From NCBI GenBank assembly GCA_043812155.1, contig JBDRMK010000007.1, positions 1 to 62,735 on the forward strand: a stretch of 62,735 nt of DNA, given 5' to 3'. This document shows, one piece after another, positions 2,558 to 47,756 of the stretch. The translations under genes and the position numbers were made by a program. Below the pieces are notes generated by a model. It searched no databases, was not told the origin of the DNA, and worked only from the letters and a program-made list of their open reading frames with translations. Numbering within the stretch: position 1 is the stretch's first letter; every line of letters starts with the position of its first letter. The stretch comes from Patescibacteria group bacterium. GTDB taxonomy: Bacteria > Patescibacteriota > Patescibacteriia > JAXHNJ01.

Positions 2558-2887
2558 ATGTCAAATATCATCCTGCATATTGATATGAATTCATACTTTG
2601 CTTCCTGCGAGCAGCAGGCCAATCCTTTTTTAAGAGGAAAGGCCGTCGGCGTGTGTTCATATTTATCCAAAAACGGCTGTATTATCGCTTCTTCCATGGA
2701 AGCGAAAAAATTTGGCATTAAAACTGGTTGCCGGGTGATGGAGGCCAAAATATTGTGTCCGGAAATTATATTGCTTGAAAACGAGCCGGCCAAGTACCGC
2801 TCCATCACCGAGAAAATTTTTTCCATCTTGTCGGAATATACAGATACACTGGAGCCTTACAGCATTGATGAGGCTTTTTGGATCTGA
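2558..2887 (+). CDS. dinB: DNA polymerase IV (DinB), N-terminal fragment ending at a frameshift
   Basis: MSNIILHIDMNSYFASCEQ and YSIDEAF are Y-family palm motifs. The frame stops at 2885-2887, just after a T5 run (2875-2879). Confidence 0.85.
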   Translation: MSNIILHIDMNSYFASCEQQANPFLRGKAVGVCSYLSKNGCIIASSMEAKKFGIKTGCRVMEAKILCPEIILLENEPAKYRSITEKIFSILSEYTDTLEPYSIDEAFWI

Positions 2888-3783
2888 CCGGCTGGGCAAA
2901 GGATCTAGCGGAGGCGGAAAAGAAAGGGAAGGAAATCCAGCAGCGCATTAAAAGGGAAGCGGGGGAATGGCTGAAATCTTCCGTCGGCATTTCTCATACC
3001 CGGTGGCTGGCCAAGTTCGCTTCGGATATCGCCCCCAAAGACGGCGTTTTAGTGATCAAAAAAAACGAGATTGATGGATTTTTAAAAAGGCCTTTGACCG
3101 AGGCCTGGGGAATCAATGTCCGGCTGGAAGCGAGGCTAAACGCCTTGGGAATTTTTAGTCTGCTGGATCTGAAAAATTATCCAGTGGCCAACTTGATGCA
3201 GGCTTTGGGAAAAATAGGCTATTATCTTTGGGCTGACGTAAACGGCTTGGAAGGGGAAAAGGTGAAAAGGGGCGAAGAGATTCGGCCGAAATCAGTAGGC
3301 CACACTTATTGCCTGTATAAAAAATCCCGTGATATAAATTATCTTTCTTCTATATTGTTAAAACTCTGCGAAAAAACCGGCCGGAGATTAAGATTGATGC
3401 GTTTGGAAGCCTACCAGTTTAGTTTCGGTTTGGCATATGAGGCCGGCGGGGGCTTTGGCGGACAGAAGAAAATAAAAGCCGGCCTTTTCACCACGGCCAG
3501 TATTTTTACCGCCGCTTTTAATATGATGAAAAAAGAGAAACTAAACGGTAAAGTTTCTTTTTTAGCCGTGTCGGTTTCCGACTTAAGGCCGATTTCCCGT
3601 CAGATGTCATTGTTGGCGGATAACTTGAAAGAAAAGGAGATCAACCTGGCCATGGACGAGATCAACGATAAGTACGGCGAATACCTGGTTTTTTGGGGCC
3701 GGATGTGGGGAACAGATGATTATGCTAGAGATAGAATAGGATTTAGGAAGACGGTGGGCGTTAATTTTGGTCGTGGCATGTGA
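2878..3783 (+). CDS. dinB: DNA polymerase IV (DinB), C-terminal fragment in the -1 frame
   Basis: Continues the canonical sequence as (L)DLTGW..., then thumb and little-finger regions. Joined with the N fragment it gives a full-length DinB. Confidence 0.85.
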   Translation: MDLTGWAKDLAEAEKKGKEIQQRIKREAGEWLKSSVGISHTRWLAKFASDIAPKDGVLVIKKNEIDGFLKRPLTEAWGINVRLEARLNALGIFSLLDLKNYPVANLMQALGKIGYYLWADVNGLEGEKVKRGEEIRPKSVGHTYCLYKKSRDINYLSSILLKLCEKTGRRLRLMRLEAYQFSFGLAYEAGGGFGGQKKIKAGLFTTASIFTAAFNMMKKEKLNGKVSFLAVSVSDLRPISRQMSLLADNLKEKEINLAMDEINDKYGEYLVFWGRMWGTDDYARDRIGFRKTVGVNFGRGM

Positions 3784-3996: not shown

Positions 3997-4024
3997 TTGA
4001 CAAAACCCCGGTATCTGCTAAGAT
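3997..4024 (+). promoter_or_regulatory. sigma70-like promoter of the structured-RNA/small-ORF locus
   Basis: TTGACA (3997-4002), 16-nt spacer, TAAGAT (4019-4024). Confidence 0.5.
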
Positions 4025-4056
4025 AGACTAAATTAACAATTTAATAAATCATGGTT

Positions 4057-4365
4057 TAATGAGGCGTGGAACGGCGGCCTGTACCTTGGACGCTTGGGCC
4101 GTCGGGAGCAAATAGCGTAACCGGCATTATCTTTTTTTGCCGTGTTACAAAACGCCTCTATTATCAGGTGTTTTTTTGTGCCCTTTAACTTCAAAAAAGA
4201 AAGGAAAGGAGTCTTAATGAGGCGGAGCGGGTATCCCTGAATGAGGACGCCTTGTCTTCTTACACCGGTAAGGAGCGGGGGATACGCCCATAGTGTCGCT
4301 ATGGGTTACCGTTAGCAAGTGGCGTAACCGGCATTAAGTCGACTTGTTACGTATTGCGCCTCATT
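4057..4365 (+). ncRNA. two tandem related structured RNA domains (riboswitch-like leader), class unknown
   Basis: Both domains open with TAATGAGGCG (4057, 4215) and close with CGCCTC(T)ATT (4153-4163, 4356-4365). Both contain GCGTAACCGGCATTA with a gtaac..gttac helix. Confidence 0.5.
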
Positions 4366-4440
4366 GACTGATTTCTGTTTCCCTTCCGCGTGCAAAAGTT
4401 TTGGAAGGGGGGAAATCCAGTCAAAAGGAGGTGATAGGAT

Positions 4441-4491
4441 ATGCATATGATGATTCTGTTAATCATCGATCTCCTTTGGTGGCTGCGCTAA
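4441..4491 (+). CDS. 16-codon hydrophobic small ORF (MHMMILLIIDLLWWLR)
   Basis: Strong SD aaaggaggtg 6-8 nt upstream. It lies between a hairpin (4366-4423) and a strong terminator. Coding status is unproven. Confidence 0.3.
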   Translation: MHMMILLIIDLLWWLR

Positions 4492-4568
4492 GCGCCGCCC
4501 CATCAATTGTTACTGTCCTGTAGAAGGACAGATAATCCTTTCTTCAACTAAGTAGCTTTTAGCTACAC

Positions 4569-4622
4569 GAGTCCGTCTGCTTGATCCCCCCTTTCCTAGA
4601 ATGGGCAGACGGACTCTTTTTT
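4569..4622 (+). terminator. intrinsic terminator
   Basis: 12-bp stem gagtccgtctgc/gcagacggactc followed by TTTTTT. Confidence 0.8.
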
Positions 4623-4649: not shown

Positions 4650-4677
4650 TTGACAAAAAAGAGGGAAGTGATAAAAT
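4650..4677 (+). promoter_or_regulatory. sigma70-like promoter
   Basis: TTGACA, 16-nt spacer, TAAAAT. Confidence 0.45.
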
Positions 4678-4691
4678 TAAATTAGAAATGA

Positions 4692-4815
4692 GCCGTCGCA
4701 AGATATAGCGCCGTCGCAAAAACGAAGATTTAAAAAAGTGTTTAACCTTAAAAATTAATTCTAAAGAATTTATAGGCGAAAATACGAAAGCGCCGTCGCT
4801 TCCAAGCGCCGTCGG
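4692..4815. repeat. four copies of G(C)GCCGTCG(C/G) in an AT-rich spacer
   Basis: gccgtcgc 4692, gcgccgtcgc 4708, gcgccgtcgc 4790, gcgccgtcgg 4806. Confidence 0.6.
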
Positions 4816-4822
4816 CAAAAGT

Positions 4823-4840
4823 TGTGGATAAGTGGATAAA
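4823..4840. promoter_or_regulatory. two adjacent DnaA-box-like motifs upstream of ssb
   Basis: TGTGGATAA (perfect) directly followed by GTGGATAAA. Confidence 0.5.
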
Positions 4841-4994
4841 CACCCCGTCTATGAAAAAATATTGGCAAAATTTAATTCTATTTATTAGAGCGATAATTTA
4901 CCGCGTAATTTATTTAACTAAAAAATTTCCCCTTAACGATTAAGGGGAAATTTTATAATTAAAGCAATATTGGTGGCTTATATAAGGAAATCAT

Positions 4995-15577: not shown

Positions 15578-18328
15578 ATGGTAAAATTATTTGTTGTTTC
15601 GGAGTTAATAACTGCATTGCTATCAGTTGTGCTGGGGTTATTCGTATTGTATAAAAGAAGAAGTCTTCAAAATTTTATTTGGTTTTGTGTTAGTATATCA
15701 GTTGCTTTGTGGAGTTTAGGCATTGCTTTATTAGTTAATAATACTAGTGATTTTTGGGCGAGATTTTGGATAGAAATATTATATTTTGGTGCAATATTAG
15801 TTCCTGTGTTTTATTTTCATTTTATTATAATTCTTACAAGGTTAAAAGATAAATATTCATTAGTAGTCAAATTAGGATATGTAATTTCAGTATTCTTTTT
15901 AATTATCAGTTTCACTCCATTATTTATTAAAGGAACTCCTCCATTATTTGGATTTAGGCATTGGATTTCTATCGGACCATTATATTATTCTTATTTTGCG
16001 TATTTTACTATTTATATTCTAATGAGTATTTTTGTACTTATTAGTGTTTTACGAGTAAGTTTTGGTATTATACGAAATCAGATTAAATACATTTTAATTG
16101 CGGGAATAATTGGTTTTAGTGGCGGCGTAACCGCCTTTTTTCCACAATTATTTGGTATCTATCCTTTTGGTAGTTATTTCGTAGGTTTTTATATAGTAGC
16201 AGTTGCATATGCAATAGTTAAACATCGTTTAATGGATATTCGTGTTATTATTACTCGTTCAATTATTTATTTCTTTCTTGTTTTGTTTGTCGCCGCTATG
16301 TTTACTGGTATCACATTTGTTACGGGTTTATTATTTGAACAGACTTTAGGAGCTAATAAATTATTAGTTACTTTAGGTTCATCAATAATAATCGTGGCTT
16401 TATTGGATCCCATTAAACGTTTGATTTCTCGTACCACTGATTCCGTGTTCTTTAAAGCCAAAATTGAATATCCCATACTCTTGCGTGATCTTTCGGAAGT
16501 TATTTCCACGGAGATTGAAATTGACGCGTTAGTTGAGAACTTAACTAAAAGATTGGATTCTGGTTTGAAGGTTAAAAATTCCATTTTGGTTCTGCAGAGC
16601 AAAGATGGTTCTTTTCGGGTAAGGACTTTAGGTCATCCTCATACTGAACCTTTGGTTTTTGAGCAGAATAACCCGCTTATCAAATATTTAAATAAAGAAG
16701 ATAAAACCATTATTACCGAGGAATTGCAAAGAAAGATTGAAGATACTACGGAAGAAAAAGGCAAAGCGGAACTTGAAAAATCCATGATTGAATTGGAAAA
16801 AATTCAGGCCTCGGCCATTGCGCCCGTAAAGACAAAAGAAAAACTTAATGCCGTATTATTATTTGGGCCTAAGCTTTCCGGCGATGTTATTAACCGCGAG
16901 GAAATTAACCTCATTGAAGTTTTGACCCCGCAAATCGCTTCCGCCATTGAAAAGTCAAAACTTTTTGAAGAGGTAAAAGGCTTCAGCGAAACCTTGCAGA
17001 AAAAAGTAGATGACGCGACTGTAGAATTGTCCGAAAGAAACCGGTTTTTGCTGTCTTTGCAGAAAGTGACTAATGTCATCACGCGGTCGCTGGATTTGAA
17101 TAAAGCGGCCCAGACCATTGTCAATTCCATCCAGAAAGATCTGGGTTATGTCGGAGGCCTCTTGCTATTAATTGATAAGGAAAAAGACCGCATATATCCG
17201 GCCGCCATTACCCAGAGCAAATTGACGGAAAAGACCTTGAAACTTCTGCCCAAACCGATTTACGAGTACTACAGTTCTTATTCGGAAGATACGACCCTGG
17301 ACACCAAGGCGGCCAAAGAGCAGAAAATCAAGATCGGCAACGGTTTTGAAGATTTTGTCTCGCCGCCGATTCCCAAATTGGTCTGCCAGGGGATTGATAA
17401 ATTATTAAAAGTAAAATCCTTGGTGGCGGTGCCGATTTTCTCGGAAAACGAAGTCATTGGCATTATTGATTTTGTCCTGCAAAAACCAAAGGAAGAAATT
17501 TCCGAAAGAGAAATAGACCTAATGAAATCCCTGGCTGACCAGACTGGGATTGTGTACCGGAATTTAAAACTTTTTGAGCAGATCAAAAAAGCCAATGAAG
17601 AGCTTGAAGAAGCCAACGTCCGTTTGAAAGCTCTTGACCAAGCCAAGACCGAATTCGTTTCCATTGCTTCCCATCAGTTGCGCACCCCGATGACCGGCAT
17701 TATGGGTTATCTGTCCATGTTGACCTCCGGCGACTTTGGCAAGCTGAAAGAAGAGCATTTGAAGATCTTGAAAGAACTCTTAGATGAAAGCCAGCGCATG
17801 ATCCGGCTTATTAACCAATTCTTGAATGTCAGCAAGATTGAAGCCGGCAAATTCGAGCTGACCAAGCGCGAGGTAAGCCTGGAAAACGTGATGGCTGAGA
17901 AGATCAAGGAAATCACCCAAGCCGCGGAAAAGAAAAACCTTAAATTGATCTATAATCCGCCTAAGAAAAAATTGCCACAAGTTTACGCCGATCCGGATAA
18001 ATTAAGCGATATCATCTTAAACCTGATTGATAATGCCATTAAATATACTAATAAAGGCAGCGTAACCGTGAGTATGGAGCATAAAGATTCGGAAATTCAG
18101 GTATCGGTCAAAGACACTGGCGTGGGCATTAAGAAAGAAGACGCGAAAGAATTATTCGGCAAGTTTCAGAGAGGTACGGGTATCGCCAGAATCCAGCCGG
18201 ACGGCTCGGGTTTAGGCTTATTCATCGCCAAGAGCGTGGTGGAAGGGCATCATGGACGGATATGGGCGGAAAGCGCGGGCGAAGGCAAGGGAAGCACGTT
18301 TTTCTTTACGATACCGATAAAAAAGTAA
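15578..18328 (+). CDS. sensor histidine kinase with N-terminal 7TM domain, GAF-like regions, HisKA and HATPase_c
   Basis: H-box SIASHQLRTPMT, N-box NLIDNAIKYT, G-boxes DTGVGI and GSGLGL; 916 aa. Confidence 0.9.
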   Translation: MVKLFVVSELITALLSVVLGLFVLYKRRSLQNFIWFCVSISVALWSLGIALLVNNTSDFWARFWIEILYFGAILVPVFYFHFIIILTRLKDKYSLVVKLGYVISVFFLIISFTPLFIKGTPPLFGFRHWISIGPLYYSYFAYFTIYILMSIFVLISVLRVSFGIIRNQIKYILIAGIIGFSGGVTAFFPQLFGIYPFGSYFVGFYIVAVAYAIVKHRLMDIRVIITRSIIYFFLVLFVAAMFTGITFVTGLLFEQTLGANKLLVTLGSSIIIVALLDPIKRLISRTTDSVFFKAKIEYPILLRDLSEVISTEIEIDALVENLTKRLDSGLKVKNSILVLQSKDGSFRVRTLGHPHTEPLVFEQNNPLIKYLNKEDKTIITEELQRKIEDTTEEKGKAELEKSMIELEKIQASAIAPVKTKEKLNAVLLFGPKLSGDVINREEINLIEVLTPQIASAIEKSKLFEEVKGFSETLQKKVDDATVELSERNRFLLSLQKVTNVITRSLDLNKAAQTIVNSIQKDLGYVGGLLLLIDKEKDRIYPAAITQSKLTEKTLKLLPKPIYEYYSSYSEDTTLDTKAAKEQKIKIGNGFEDFVSPPIPKLVCQGIDKLLKVKSLVAVPIFSENEVIGIIDFVLQKPKEEISEREIDLMKSLADQTGIVYRNLKLFEQIKKANEELEEANVRLKALDQAKTEFVSIASHQLRTPMTGIMGYLSMLTSGDFGKLKEEHLKILKELLDESQRMIRLINQFLNVSKIEAGKFELTKREVSLENVMAEKIKEITQAAEKKNLKLIYNPPKKKLPQVYADPDKLSDIILNLIDNAIKYTNKGSVTVSMEHKDSEIQVSVKDTGVGIKKEDAKELFGKFQRGTGIARIQPDGSGLGLFIAKSVVEGHHGRIWAESAGEGKGSTFFFTIPIKK

Positions 18329-18333
18329 TTTTA

Positions 18334-18434
18334 CCCGCTGTCATACTGAGCCCTGAGCCGCGGCGAAGGTGTCGAAGTATAGACAGCGGCCATAATTAAG
18401 CGTCACCCTTCGAGGCTTCGCACCTCAGAGTGAC
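18334..18434. repeat. GC-rich REP-like double hairpin
   Basis: cccgctgtc...gacagcgg and gtcac...gtgac, with an internal ggcgaagg motif. Confidence 0.5.
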
Positions 18435-18446
18435 AGGATAAAATAT

Positions 18447-18860
18447 ATGCGCCAAACGAAAAAAATATTAATCGTCGAAGATGAGGTTCTGACTACTCAG
18501 ATGTACAAGGATGCTTTCGGGAAAATGGGTTATTATTTGTACGCGGTCAAGAACAAGGTGGAAGCCTTAAAGAAGATAAAAGAAGAACAGCCGGCCATGA
18601 TCCTTCTGGACCTGCTTATCCCGACCGAGGACGGCGAGTTTGGGAAGTTTGATTTCCGGACGCCGATCGGCCTGGATATTCTGAAGTCGGTTAAGCAGGA
18701 TCCAGCCACGAAAGACACCAAAGTGGTGGTTTTGACGAATTTGGAAAACGACCAGGCCCGCTTGGGGGCGAAGTCCGCCGGGGCCAATGACTTTATCATC
18801 AAAACCGAACTGACGCCAAGCCAGGTTGCCGAAAGGGTGATTGGGTTGCTAGAGTCTTGA
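18447..18860 (+). CDS. single-domain response regulator (receiver only)
   Basis: ILIVEDE, phospho-acceptor context ILLDLLIP, VVVLTN and a conserved Lys region; 137 aa. Confidence 0.85.
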   Translation: MRQTKKILIVEDEVLTTQMYKDAFGKMGYYLYAVKNKVEALKKIKEEQPAMILLDLLIPTEDGEFGKFDFRTPIGLDILKSVKQDPATKDTKVVVLTNLENDQARLGAKSAGANDFIIKTELTPSQVAERVIGLLES

Positions 18861-47062: not shown

Positions 47063-47756
47063 CCTAAGTAAACCGGATGATCGCCCGCCTTCGCTCTGCG
47101 CTTTACGCTTGAGCTACGGCGGGCAAGCCCCTTTTTTTAGAGAAATAAGGGGGCCTGCCCGCCGAAGCCCGAAGTGAAACGTAGGGCGAAGGCGGGAGGA
47201 AAGTCCGAACACCTCTTTCGCCAGTTTTTGGCGAAAGAACAACGATAGTTCTTAACAAGAACCGAAGGGTAAGTGGTCAAAACGCTCGCGCGAATTTTTG
47301 ACGCTTTGCTTTTTAGGGAAAGTGCAACAGAAACATACCGCCGCAAGCCCTATTCACTTATCGGGGCTGGCAAGGGTGAAATCGTGTCCTCCTTCGTCTT
47401 CCTACGGAAGACTATGGCGGATTCTCCGAAACCAAACGCATTCTGTATCATCTTTGTTTTACAAGGATTGATACTCCGAAGCCTTGGCGAAGGAGTAAGG
47501 TAAGAGCTCACGCTTTTCCAAGGTGACTTGGAAAAGGGGAAAACCCTATCGGGTGCAAGACCAAAGTTATTTCCGGTTAAAATTTAGCCGGGGATGGGTA
47601 GGTCGCATGACTCCGGCCGCAAGGCCAGGGGCAAGAGAGATGATCATCCTGCCTTCGTCAAGACTTCGGCAGGCAAGCCCTCTTATTTTAAGGAGGGACT
47701 TGTCCACCGTAGCCTTGGCGAAGGTGGACAGAATTCGGCTTATAGGTTTACTTAGG
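47063..47756 (+). ncRNA. rnpB: RNase P RNA (bacterial type), unusually long because of GC-rich hairpin insertions
   Basis: P1 cctaagtaaacc/ggtttacttagg. Conserved blocks GGAGGAAAGTCCGAACAC (47196), AGTGCAACAGAAACATACCGCC, GGGTGAAA, GGTAAGAGCTCACG and ACAGAATTCGGCTTATAGG (47728). Confidence 0.85.

Follow-up and report, generated by a model that had tools for sequence, protein, structure and literature searches.

A locus at positions 3997-4622 (forward strand) of contig JBDRMK010000007.1, from a Patescibacteria group bacterium of the candidate phyla radiation (CPR), raises the question of what two related, aptamer-like RNA domains are doing in front of an open reading frame (ORF) of only 16 codons. 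The window analysed here is the whole stretch of 62,735 nucleotides, positions 1 to 62,735 of that contig. An initial annotation, made from the sequence alone, had described a promoter, the two domains, a T7 run, a hairpin adjacent to the Shine-Dalgarno sequence, the 16-codon ORF and a terminator, all of which are present in the sequence, and had left the motif unrecognised; we identify it as the cyclic di-GMP (c-di-GMP) class II riboswitch, c-di-GMP-II (Rfam clan CL00127). Our reading of the locus, to which we assign a probability of about 0.75, is that a sigma-70 promoter is followed by two c-di-GMP-II-class OFF switches in series, a strongly initiated micropeptide ORF, a structured 3′ untranslated region (3′ UTR) and a strong terminator. 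Neither this class of riboswitch nor its tandem use is new. Apparently new are the family of micropeptides, its placement behind this riboswitch in CPR bacteria where sigma-54 controls it elsewhere, and the occurrence of the aptamer class in genomes without recognisable c-di-GMP metabolism.

Both leader domains are c-di-GMP-II-class aptamers

The two domains share TTAATGAGGCG, which is 100% identical at 4056-4066 and 4214-4224, and a 23-nt repeat with GCGTAACCGGCATTA (4107-4129 and 4314-4336, 91% identical). An Rfam scan matched domain 1 to RF03169 (c-di-GMP-II-GAG) at 47.6 bits, where the gathering score is 40, and a local search matched it to RF01786 (canonical c-di-GMP-II) at 53.3 bits, above its RF03169 score; domain 2 had no Rfam match. 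We therefore also used a covariance model, R1, which was built from 26 aptamers of related CPR genomes with the window excluded and was scanned over the whole 62.7-kb window with the filters off. It recovered both domains, with scores of 79.4 bits (E = 9e-25) for domain 1 and 40.0 bits (E = 3.6e-11) for domain 2 (4209-4342), while the next-best match had an E value of 0.3. Since the model found both domains and nothing else in the window, the resemblance of the two domains to this class exceeds chance. Their elements are as follows:

4051-4135 (+): aptamer 1, c-di-GMP-II class (RF03169, RF01786, model R1, covariation)
4057-4061/4125-4129, 4063-4065/4108-4110 and 4072-4079/4097-4104 (+): helices P1, P2 and P3 of aptamer 1
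4088-4094 with 4114-4118 and 4121-4122 (+): pseudoknot of aptamer 1, GGACGCU with AGCGU..CC
A4062, A4111, A4119, A4120 and G4123 (+): pocket bases of aptamer 1
4209-4342 (+): aptamer 2, a divergent copy with hairpin inserts of ~50 nt (model R1, shared repeats, compensated pseudoknot)
4213-4219/4332-4338 (+): helix P1 of aptamer 2
4245-4251 with 4321-4325 and 4328-4329 (+): pseudoknot of aptamer 2, GGACGCC with GGCGU..CC
A4220, A4318, A4326, A4327 and G4330 (+): pocket bases of aptamer 2

Homologous copies of the domains and covariation between paired positions were both found. In an alignment of 28 CPR aptamers, covering 23 pairs of P1, P2, P3 and the pseudoknot, 93.5% of the cells were paired and both sides had changed in 14 of the 23 pairs; the covariation score was 0.526, compared with 0.189 after shuffling and at most 0.15 for slid partners. 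The pseudoknot was paired in every one of the 28 aptamers (100%), and the pair adjoining its AA bulge was A-U in 18, U-A in 7, G-C in 2 and G.U in 1. The window reads GUAACC in place of the canonical GCAACC because the U pairs with the A of the loop GGACGC, so that the pair beside the AA bulge is U-A here rather than C-G and the change is compensated; domain 2 fits the pseudoknot via a double compensatory change (GGACGCC/GGCGU). The likeness to the c-di-GMP-II riboswitch (RF01786; structure 3Q3Z) extends to the P1-P2-P3 and pseudoknot architecture, the AA bulge, the CCG of the pseudoknot strand, the kink-turn signature of domain 1 and the intrinsic terminator after the aptamer. These findings show that both domains are aptamers of the c-di-GMP-II class (clan CL00127) by homology and fold.

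In the c-di-GMP complex 3Q3Z, the ligand is contacted by the floor A13, the ceiling A61, A69 and G73, each of which reads one guanine, and the intercalating A70 (PMC13715770). Equivalents of all five bases are present in both domains; across the 28 aptamers, A61, A69, A70 and G73 are invariant and A12, the equivalent of A13, is kept in at least 90%. The GAG variant (RF03169) has the same scaffold, and domain 1 passes its gathering score, but its Rfam consensus is GAGACC, as opposed to the canonical GCAACC, whereas both window domains read GCGUAACCGG, with A69 kept, and the A69-to-G signature of the variant is missing. To our knowledge, the ligand of the GAG variant has not been established. 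The pocket sequence places domain 1 among the c-di-GMP-II aptamers of canonical type.

Several features nevertheless weigh against a straightforward assignment of the two aptamers. Domain 1 falls 0.2 bits short of the RF01786 gathering score (53.3 compared with 53.5), and the first P2 pair, A14-U60 in 3Q3Z, is G.A in domains 1 and 2 alike; among the aligned CPR aptamers it is G.U in 10, G-C in 8, A-U in 3 and something else in 6, and the Rfam consensus is variable there too. Aptamer 2 has inserted hairpins of ~50 nt, a kink-turn bulge of 1 nt instead of 3 nt, and deviations at three or four positions where the other CPR aptamers vary little or not at all (A20, U37, G56 and possibly A33), and, going by these changes, its binding may be weak or nil. 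In the same-genus genome, G003, the second aptamer at this site is compact and canonical (62.6 bits), which suggests that the second aptamer of the window may be weakened.

Both units are predicted to act as OFF switches

The inverted repeat AATGAGGCG/CGCCTCATT is perfect over 9 nt at 4216-4224/4357-4365 and has a counterpart in domain 1, at 4058-4066/4153-4162, with a one-base bulge. The initial annotation had taken AATGAGGCG/CGCCTC(T)ATT as the helix closing each domain and had placed a gtaac/gttac helix inside each. In our folds, AAUGAGGCG/CGCCUC(U)AUU instead lies outside the aptamer fold and is modelled as a ligand-free alternative pairing (anti-terminator or anti-anti-Shine-Dalgarno), and the gtaac/gttac helix is likewise assigned to the ligand-free alternative pairing of the expression platforms. 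The relevant elements are:

4138-4177 (+): expression platform 1 (folding; same design class-wide)
4356-4365 (+): putative switching strand GCGCCUCAUU (perfect 9-nt inverted repeat, folds)
4366-4422 (+): long hairpin that brings the switching strand beside the Shine-Dalgarno sequence (folding)

In unit 1, AAUGAGGCG (4058-4066) spans the 3′ half of the P1 5′ strand, the floor adenine and the P2 5′ strand, and UGCCGUGUUAC (4138-4148) is able to pair with the 3′ side of aptamer 1, GUAACCGGCA. Two mutually alternative structures follow downstream: an anti-terminator, in which CGCCUCUAUU (4153-4162) pairs with AAUGAGGCG, and a terminator, in which AAAACGCCU (4149-4157) pairs with AGGUGUUUU (4166-4174) and ends in the U7 run at 4171-4177, corresponding to the T7 run 3′ of domain 1. 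Their folding energies were -45.2 and -45.6 kcal/mol, respectively. When the nascent transcript was folded only as far as 4163 or 4170, the minimum free energy structure was the anti-terminator, the 3′ arm of the terminator being still unmade at these points. In unit 2, the folds have CGCCUC (4357-4362) paired either with AAUGAGGCG (4216-4224) or with the GAGGUG of the Shine-Dalgarno sequence (4428-4433). The hairpin at 4366-4422 was also considered as a terminator and rejected, there being no U-run after it; it is missing from the same-genus genome, which has a second terminator there instead.

These alternatives suggest how the two units might work. Without ligand, AAUGAGGCG would pair with the downstream CGCCUC(U)AUU, so that terminator 1 would be blocked and the Shine-Dalgarno sequence would be free. 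With ligand, the aptamer would retain AAUGAGGC; in unit 1 the freed CGCCU would complete the terminator and turn transcription off, while in unit 2 the freed CGCCUC would pair with GAGGUG across the base of the 4366-4422 hairpin and turn translation off. Since a ligand-locked aptamer frees CGCCU for the terminator, unit 1 should be an OFF switch, and from the modelled pairings we infer the same for both units. Production of the peptide would then be confined to conditions of ligand scarcity, and two switches for the same ligand in series would give a steeper response. Tandem c-di-GMP-II riboswitches with separate platforms are known, as 59 doublets and 9 triplets, and are thought to sharpen the dose response (PMC9481103).

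The same design recurs elsewhere. An exact reverse complement of the aptamer GAGGC was found no more than 90 nt downstream in 18 of 31 related loci, compared with 51 of 825 control windows, and in 16 of these 18 loci a U-run begins 13-21 nt later, which makes the complement the 5′ arm of a terminator. These results show that the alternative pairings exist and are common across the class. The direction of switching is a weaker point of the reading: the two states of the platform are nearly isoenergetic in silico, and the predicted direction would follow from the logic of the design and from the order of co-transcriptional synthesis.

The aptamers occur in genomes lacking GGDEF, EAL and DAC domains

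RF01786 aptamers were found in all four genomes of the family to which the window belongs, an order-level search returning the same four, and in 23 of the 401 genomes of its class, several of them in tandem. The genes downstream of the aptamers across the class encode receiver-like proteins (with a weak PF00072 match), secreted proteins without a Pfam match, and micropeptides. None of the 23 aptamer-bearing class genomes, including that of the window, has a GGDEF domain (PF00990), the mark of c-di-GMP cyclases, and the same 0/23 result was obtained for EAL (PF00563), that of c-di-GMP phosphodiesterases, and for DAC, the cyclic di-AMP (c-di-AMP) synthase, while SMODS (CD-NTase) was found in 1 of the 23. 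As a positive control, GGDEF was found in 95 of the 401 class genomes (24%). The naive chance of finding no GGDEF in 23 genomes is ~0.002, a figure that is weakened by kinship; the aptamers are spread over 8 families, and in one of these a different genus does have GGDEF. The genome of the window organism is 1.14 Mb in size and 99.8% complete, and it has c-di-GMP-II-type aptamers with intact pockets but encodes no enzyme recognisable as producing or degrading c-di-GMP (HD-GYP was not searched).

The ligand cannot be c-di-GMP from a recognisable enzyme of this organism. A cyclic dinucleotide, or a molecule closely related to one, is the probable ligand, and the possibilities are that it comes from outside the cell, that it is a different molecule, or that the genome encodes an unrecognised synthase. 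A tentative explanation of the first kind keeps the architecture described above and has the aptamers sense c-di-GMP or 3′,3′-cyclic GMP-AMP (3′,3′-cGAMP) from the host or from neighbouring bacteria, to which CPR bacteria, as cells that live attached to others, would be exposed; the micropeptide would be made only without this foreign signal. All five ligand-contacting bases of the c-di-GMP-bound structure are conserved, as this would predict, and the absence of GGDEF, EAL and DAC from the aptamer genomes, while 24% of the class has GGDEF, points the same way, as does the 1.14-Mb genome, a size that is typical of host-dependent CPR bacteria. However, no cyclic dinucleotide uptake route is known here, none having been looked for, and the anti-correlation with GGDEF becomes weaker once the relatedness of the genomes is taken into account.

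It is also conceivable, and we hold it about as tentatively, that the same architecture belongs to a CPR subtype with shifted specificity, which would read a self-made or scavenged nucleotide-derived ligand such as the linear dinucleotide pGpG or another dinucleotide. Single changes in the scaffold, including in the first P2 pair, switch the preference between c-di-GMP, 3′,3′-cGAMP and 2′,3′-cGAMP (PMC13715770). Here that pair is G.A, G.U or G-C and not A-U, and the known synthases are missing, both of which would fit such a shift; on the other hand, no change is seen in the adenines of ceiling and floor, in the intercalating A70, or in A69 and G73, which read the nucleobases, and the A69-to-G replacement that marks the GAG variant has not taken place.

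We put forward, as a possibility that we hold only loosely, the wider proposal that CPR lineages without recognised cyclic dinucleotide enzymes keep a c-di-GMP-II-class OFF regulon of micropeptides, receiver-like proteins and secreted proteins, which reads a signal that is not self-made, either a cyclic dinucleotide of the host or community or a ligand not yet assigned, and of which a peptide ending in IIDL[LF]WWLR-stop, under sigma-54 elsewhere, is one output. The aptamer-bearing genomes are a clear example of a much-studied second-messenger riboswitch class whose hosts have no recognisable route to make or degrade the messenger: either these ultra-small symbionts listen to the c-di-GMP of other cells, or the scaffold has another natural ligand. 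A literature search found no paper on a CPR riboswitch or on exogenous c-di-GMP.

The 16-codon ORF is conserved as a peptide sequence

The target of the two predicted switches is the only ORF of the transcript:

4427-4491 (+): Shine-Dalgarno sequence GGAGGUGAU (4427-4435), a 5-nt spacer, and the 16-codon ORF MHMMILLIIDLLWWLR with its stop (4441-4491) (homologues, codon changes)

The Shine-Dalgarno sequence, GGAGGTGAT (4427-4435), lies just 3′ of the 4366-4422 hairpin. In the same-genus genome the corresponding ORF is MMWHIFIIDLLWWLR, and its final nine residues are identical to those of the window ORF, while 4 of the 9 conserved codons differ synonymously between the two, including Arg CGC compared with AGG. 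The gene is single-copy in the genome of the window organism. Comparative sequence evidence of this kind shows that the 16-residue ORF is a real gene, conserved as a peptide and previously unannotated. The interpretation in the initial annotation was partly supported, its central point, tandem aptamer-like domains before a tiny hydrophobic peptide, being upheld.

We defined the family as ORFs of 11-24 codons with their own Shine-Dalgarno sequence, a hydrophobic N-terminus and [IL]IDL[LF]WWLR at or almost at the stop; the window ORF conforms, having its Shine-Dalgarno sequence 5 nt before the ATG and the motif before the stop. A degenerate-pattern scan for IIDL(L/F)WWLR followed by a stop, with one genome per species, returned 35 loci (34 in other phyla and the same-genus locus), compared with ~0.3 calculated by chance. 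The motif terminates a short open frame with a start codon in all 35; in 34 of them, the start codon stands 2-15 codons before the motif and follows a Shine-Dalgarno sequence of the GG(A/G)GG type, mostly GG(A/G)GGUGAU at 7 nt. The 35 loci use all three stop codons and all six Arg codons, and use Leu codons freely, which indicates that selection acts on the peptide and not on the RNA. The loci are mostly labelled Krumholzibacteriota; other labels are Planctomycetota, UBP1, Micrarchaeota and plain bacterium.

Control of the peptide outside the CPR appears to be different. An aptamer lies upstream only at the same-genus locus among the 35, whereas a sigma-54-type -24/-12 element (GGCAY-N6-TGC[A/T/C]) was found 93-128 nt before the motif in 27 of the 35 loci, compared with 16 of 776 control windows. 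Sigma-54 is encoded in all 11 of the tested genomes with such elements and in none of the 4 CPR genomes with the peptide. An Rfam scan of 19 peptide loci of other phyla, together with a permissive scan of one of them, detected only tRNAs and no known riboswitch. The usual neighbour of the peptide in other phyla is a gene for a membrane 7TM-GAF-SpoIIE (PP2C) phosphatase, and the peptide genes there end in a terminator with no co-oriented gene behind. Control by two unrelated devices, a riboswitch and sigma-54, argues for a real and conditionally needed function of the peptide.

Within the class of the window organism, the shorter pattern D-L-[LF]-W-W-L-R matched in 5 of the 401 genomes, and a reversed control pattern gave 3 matches. 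One of the five (G258) lies inside an ORF of 596 residues, was taken as a chance match and was rejected as a family member. The remaining four are the window's genome, its congener and two genomes from another family, in both of which the peptide gene closes an operon that begins with this aptamer class and also codes for receiver-like proteins; the peptides of these two genomes are MWEFLPVMGLALIDLFWWLRK and the product of a 22-codon, GTG-initiated ORF ending LIDLFWWLRR. All 4 peptide-bearing genomes thus place the peptide behind this aptamer class, although only 23 of the 401 class genomes carry the aptamer. The check proposed in the initial annotation, whether homologous leaders always stand before the small ORF, had a negative outcome when taken strictly: related aptamers mostly have other genes behind them, and the peptide gene is mostly found without an aptamer. 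A metagenome scan for aptamer and peptide at the right spacing returned only the contig of the same-genus metagenome-assembled genome, so that, in the scanned collections, no other genus has the aptamer directly before the peptide gene.

The family seems to have escaped annotation. Ten longer readings (20-26 residues) had no exact match in a collection of 15 billion proteins, five peptide readings had no match in Pfam or NCBIfam, and a literature search found no paper with the peptide motif. A family of 14-24-residue peptides has been missed in CPR, Krumholzibacteriota, Planctomycetota-labelled and other genomes; on the wider, loosely held proposal given above, the peptide would be a general, condition-specific membrane effector overlooked by annotation.

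The predicted product consists of a variable hydrophobic N-terminal part followed by IIDLLWWLR at the stop, and it would sit in or at the membrane and act on a partner there. The hydrophobic N-terminal part, the buried Asp and the Trp-Trp-Leu-Arg end, which is typical of interfacial anchoring, make it most likely, as judged from the sequence, that the peptide is found at the membrane or its interface and acts on a partner, possibly a signalling protein, given the neighbours in other lineages. A point on the other side is that 16 residues are too short for a single helix spanning the bilayer, which makes the membrane role a guess.

Two other explanations of the ORF have to be considered. The initial annotation had offered a riboswitch-controlled membrane peptide or a type I toxin-like module, of which the riboswitch part has held up, while none of the features of a type I system was found. 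A membrane-damaging type I toxin, controlled by an antisense RNA with the riboswitches as a second layer, would account for a short hydrophobic peptide with a Trp/Arg C-terminal end under tight, multi-layer repression, and for a monocistronic gene with a long structured 5′ leader, such as occurs in several type I toxin mRNAs. We nevertheless consider this improbable: there is no promoter-like site on the minus strand within 3997-4622, the peptide, at 14-17 residues, is shorter than known type I toxins, and its gene is single-copy and vertically conserved in the genus. Elsewhere, the gene stands behind sigma-54 promoters, beside a signalling phosphatase or last in an operon of receiver-like proteins, and such genomic contexts point to a regulated accessory peptide rather than to a mobile addiction module.

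It is more improbable still that the ORF is a Trp-type attenuation leader peptide, or that the RNA is the functional product and the ORF incidental, even though the tandem TGG codons are followed by two hairpins and a terminator, as a leader peptide would have it. The downstream gene, ssb, has its own promoter (4650-4677) past the terminator, and the peptide genes of other phyla have no co-oriented gene behind their terminators. Moreover, nine residues are conserved at the amino-acid level with free synonymous variation, which argues against a codon-sensing leader as well as a non-coding RNA, neither of which needs such conservation. A riboswitch-controlled micropeptide therefore remains our preferred reading of the ORF.

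Relation to known systems

Compared with the c-di-GMP-II riboswitches described so far, the present locus differs not only in the first P2 pair, G.A rather than A-U, and in a score 0.2 bits below the cut-off, but also in a host lineage without GGDEF or EAL, in the predicted OFF logic, in the inserts of domain 2 and in a target ORF of 16 codons.

By analogy, the closest functional precedent is the CD1980.2 family of Clostridioides difficile, small membrane proteins that are repressed by c-di-GMP-I riboswitches via premature termination (PMC13724677). Both cases combine a cyclic dinucleotide OFF riboswitch, predicted in ours, with a small membrane-associated protein that was missed by annotation. 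However, the CD1980.2 proteins follow a class I aptamer, have 58 residues and multiple paralogues, have no homologues outside C. difficile and belong to a host that makes c-di-GMP, whereas here tandem class II aptamers precede an unrelated 16-residue peptide, encoded by a single-copy gene, whose family spans phyla.

The small peptides KdpF, MgtR, AcrZ and Prli42 and the toxins Ibs, Ldr and TisB are likewise short, hydrophobic and tightly regulated; gene callers often overlook them, and they work either through a membrane partner to which they bind or through disturbance of the membrane itself. The present peptides have no sequence similarity to them, are shorter than nearly all of them at 14-24 residues, have a strictly conserved C-terminal nonapeptide at the stop, and have no antisense partner that we could find.

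Locus layout and neighbouring genes

The remaining elements of the unit are:

3997-4024 (+): sigma-70-type promoter with an extended -10 TG (consensus match; similar promoter at the equivalent site in the same-genus genome G003)
4513-4531 and 4552-4566 (+): two 3′-UTR hairpins (folding)
4569-4622 (+): intrinsic terminator; perfect 12-bp stem (15 pairs when folded), loop of 24 nt, U6 run (inverted repeats, folding)

The promoter, TTGACA-16-TAAGAT, agrees with 10 of the 12 consensus positions and has the TG preceding the -10 element, from which the transcription start would lie near 4031. The resulting transcript of 595 nt folds with a z score of -6.4 relative to shuffled sequences. The perfect stem of the final terminator (4569-4580/4605-4616) is followed by T6, and the locus is a self-contained transcription unit of ~590 nt. 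The loop of the terminator contains AUCCCCCC (4585-4593), which is complementary to AAGGGGGGA (4405-4413), 5′ of the Shine-Dalgarno sequence; this complementarity is kept in the same-genus genome, where the flanking bases are altered, and may bring about a 5′-3′ contact inside the peptide mRNA. The same-genus genome also has 3′-UTR hairpins at matching places with different sequences, a comparison of two sequences only and weak evidence as such. Its gene order is syntenic, with dinB, promoter, aptamer, terminator, aptamer, terminator, ORF, 3′ hairpins, terminator and ssb. In that genome (locus L005, reverse strand) the peptide terminator is separated from the ssb leader by an extra unit of ~150 nt, made up of a TTGACA promoter, a stem-loop and a terminator with a U-run; it resembles a small RNA gene and is not in the window.

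The ssb promoter, TTGACA-16-TAAAAT at 4650-4677, lies 3′ of the peptide terminator and agrees with 11 of the 12 consensus positions. It is followed by a leader of ~330 nt (region 4650-4990) with four GCGCCGTCG boxes that are conserved in the same-genus genome. Upstream of the locus, a gene for a dinB-type translesion polymerase (IMS family) is present as two overlapping ORFs, 2531-2887 and 2878-3783, the split being a frameshift, a pseudogene or an assembly error. A gene for an IS200-like Y1 transposase (PF01797, E = 1e-9) lies at 1025-1627, 2.4 kb 5′ of the locus.

Some observations were made on the peptide loci of other genomes. In L032, L045, L058 and similar loci, the peptide terminator AAUGUUCCCG...CGGGAACAUU is conserved, and 200-330 nt past the peptide stop there is a sigma-70-like promoter with a conserved transcript start, GGGGCAAGCGGACUACGCGG..., which has no Rfam match. 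Ten loci were scanned with ARAGORN, and a tRNA-Arg(CCU) gene was present ~450 nt from the peptide in all 8 loci that had tRNAs. One locus labelled Patescibacteria (L039, DATKWS010000037.1) belongs to a 3.2-Mb genome with rpoN and has a Krumholzibacteriota-like arrangement, which makes the label doubtful. Riboswitch-led operons of other CPR genomes contain different tiny ORFs with good Shine-Dalgarno sequences, namely MDLISVLILISAKYEW and VNKFNDVWQALLAIFSKWEW at L010 (G202) and L012/L027 (G263), both ending K[YW]EW-stop; by their sequences, they possibly represent another kind of micropeptide within this regulon.

Elsewhere in the window, an ORF of 916 residues at 15578-18860 is a histidine kinase by its sequence motifs. 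In a tblastn comparison (E = 8e-12, 23% identity), its sensor part matched the 7TM-GAF part of the SpoIIE phosphatase encoded beside the peptide in other phyla. The ORF is followed by a gene for a receiver-like protein; it lies 11 kb from the peptide gene, and a link between the two is speculative. Finally, the window encodes a bacterial RNase P RNA (class A, 113 bits) of 544 nt at 47146-47689; compared with the model, which has 367 positions, it carries insertions of ~60 and ~120 nt.

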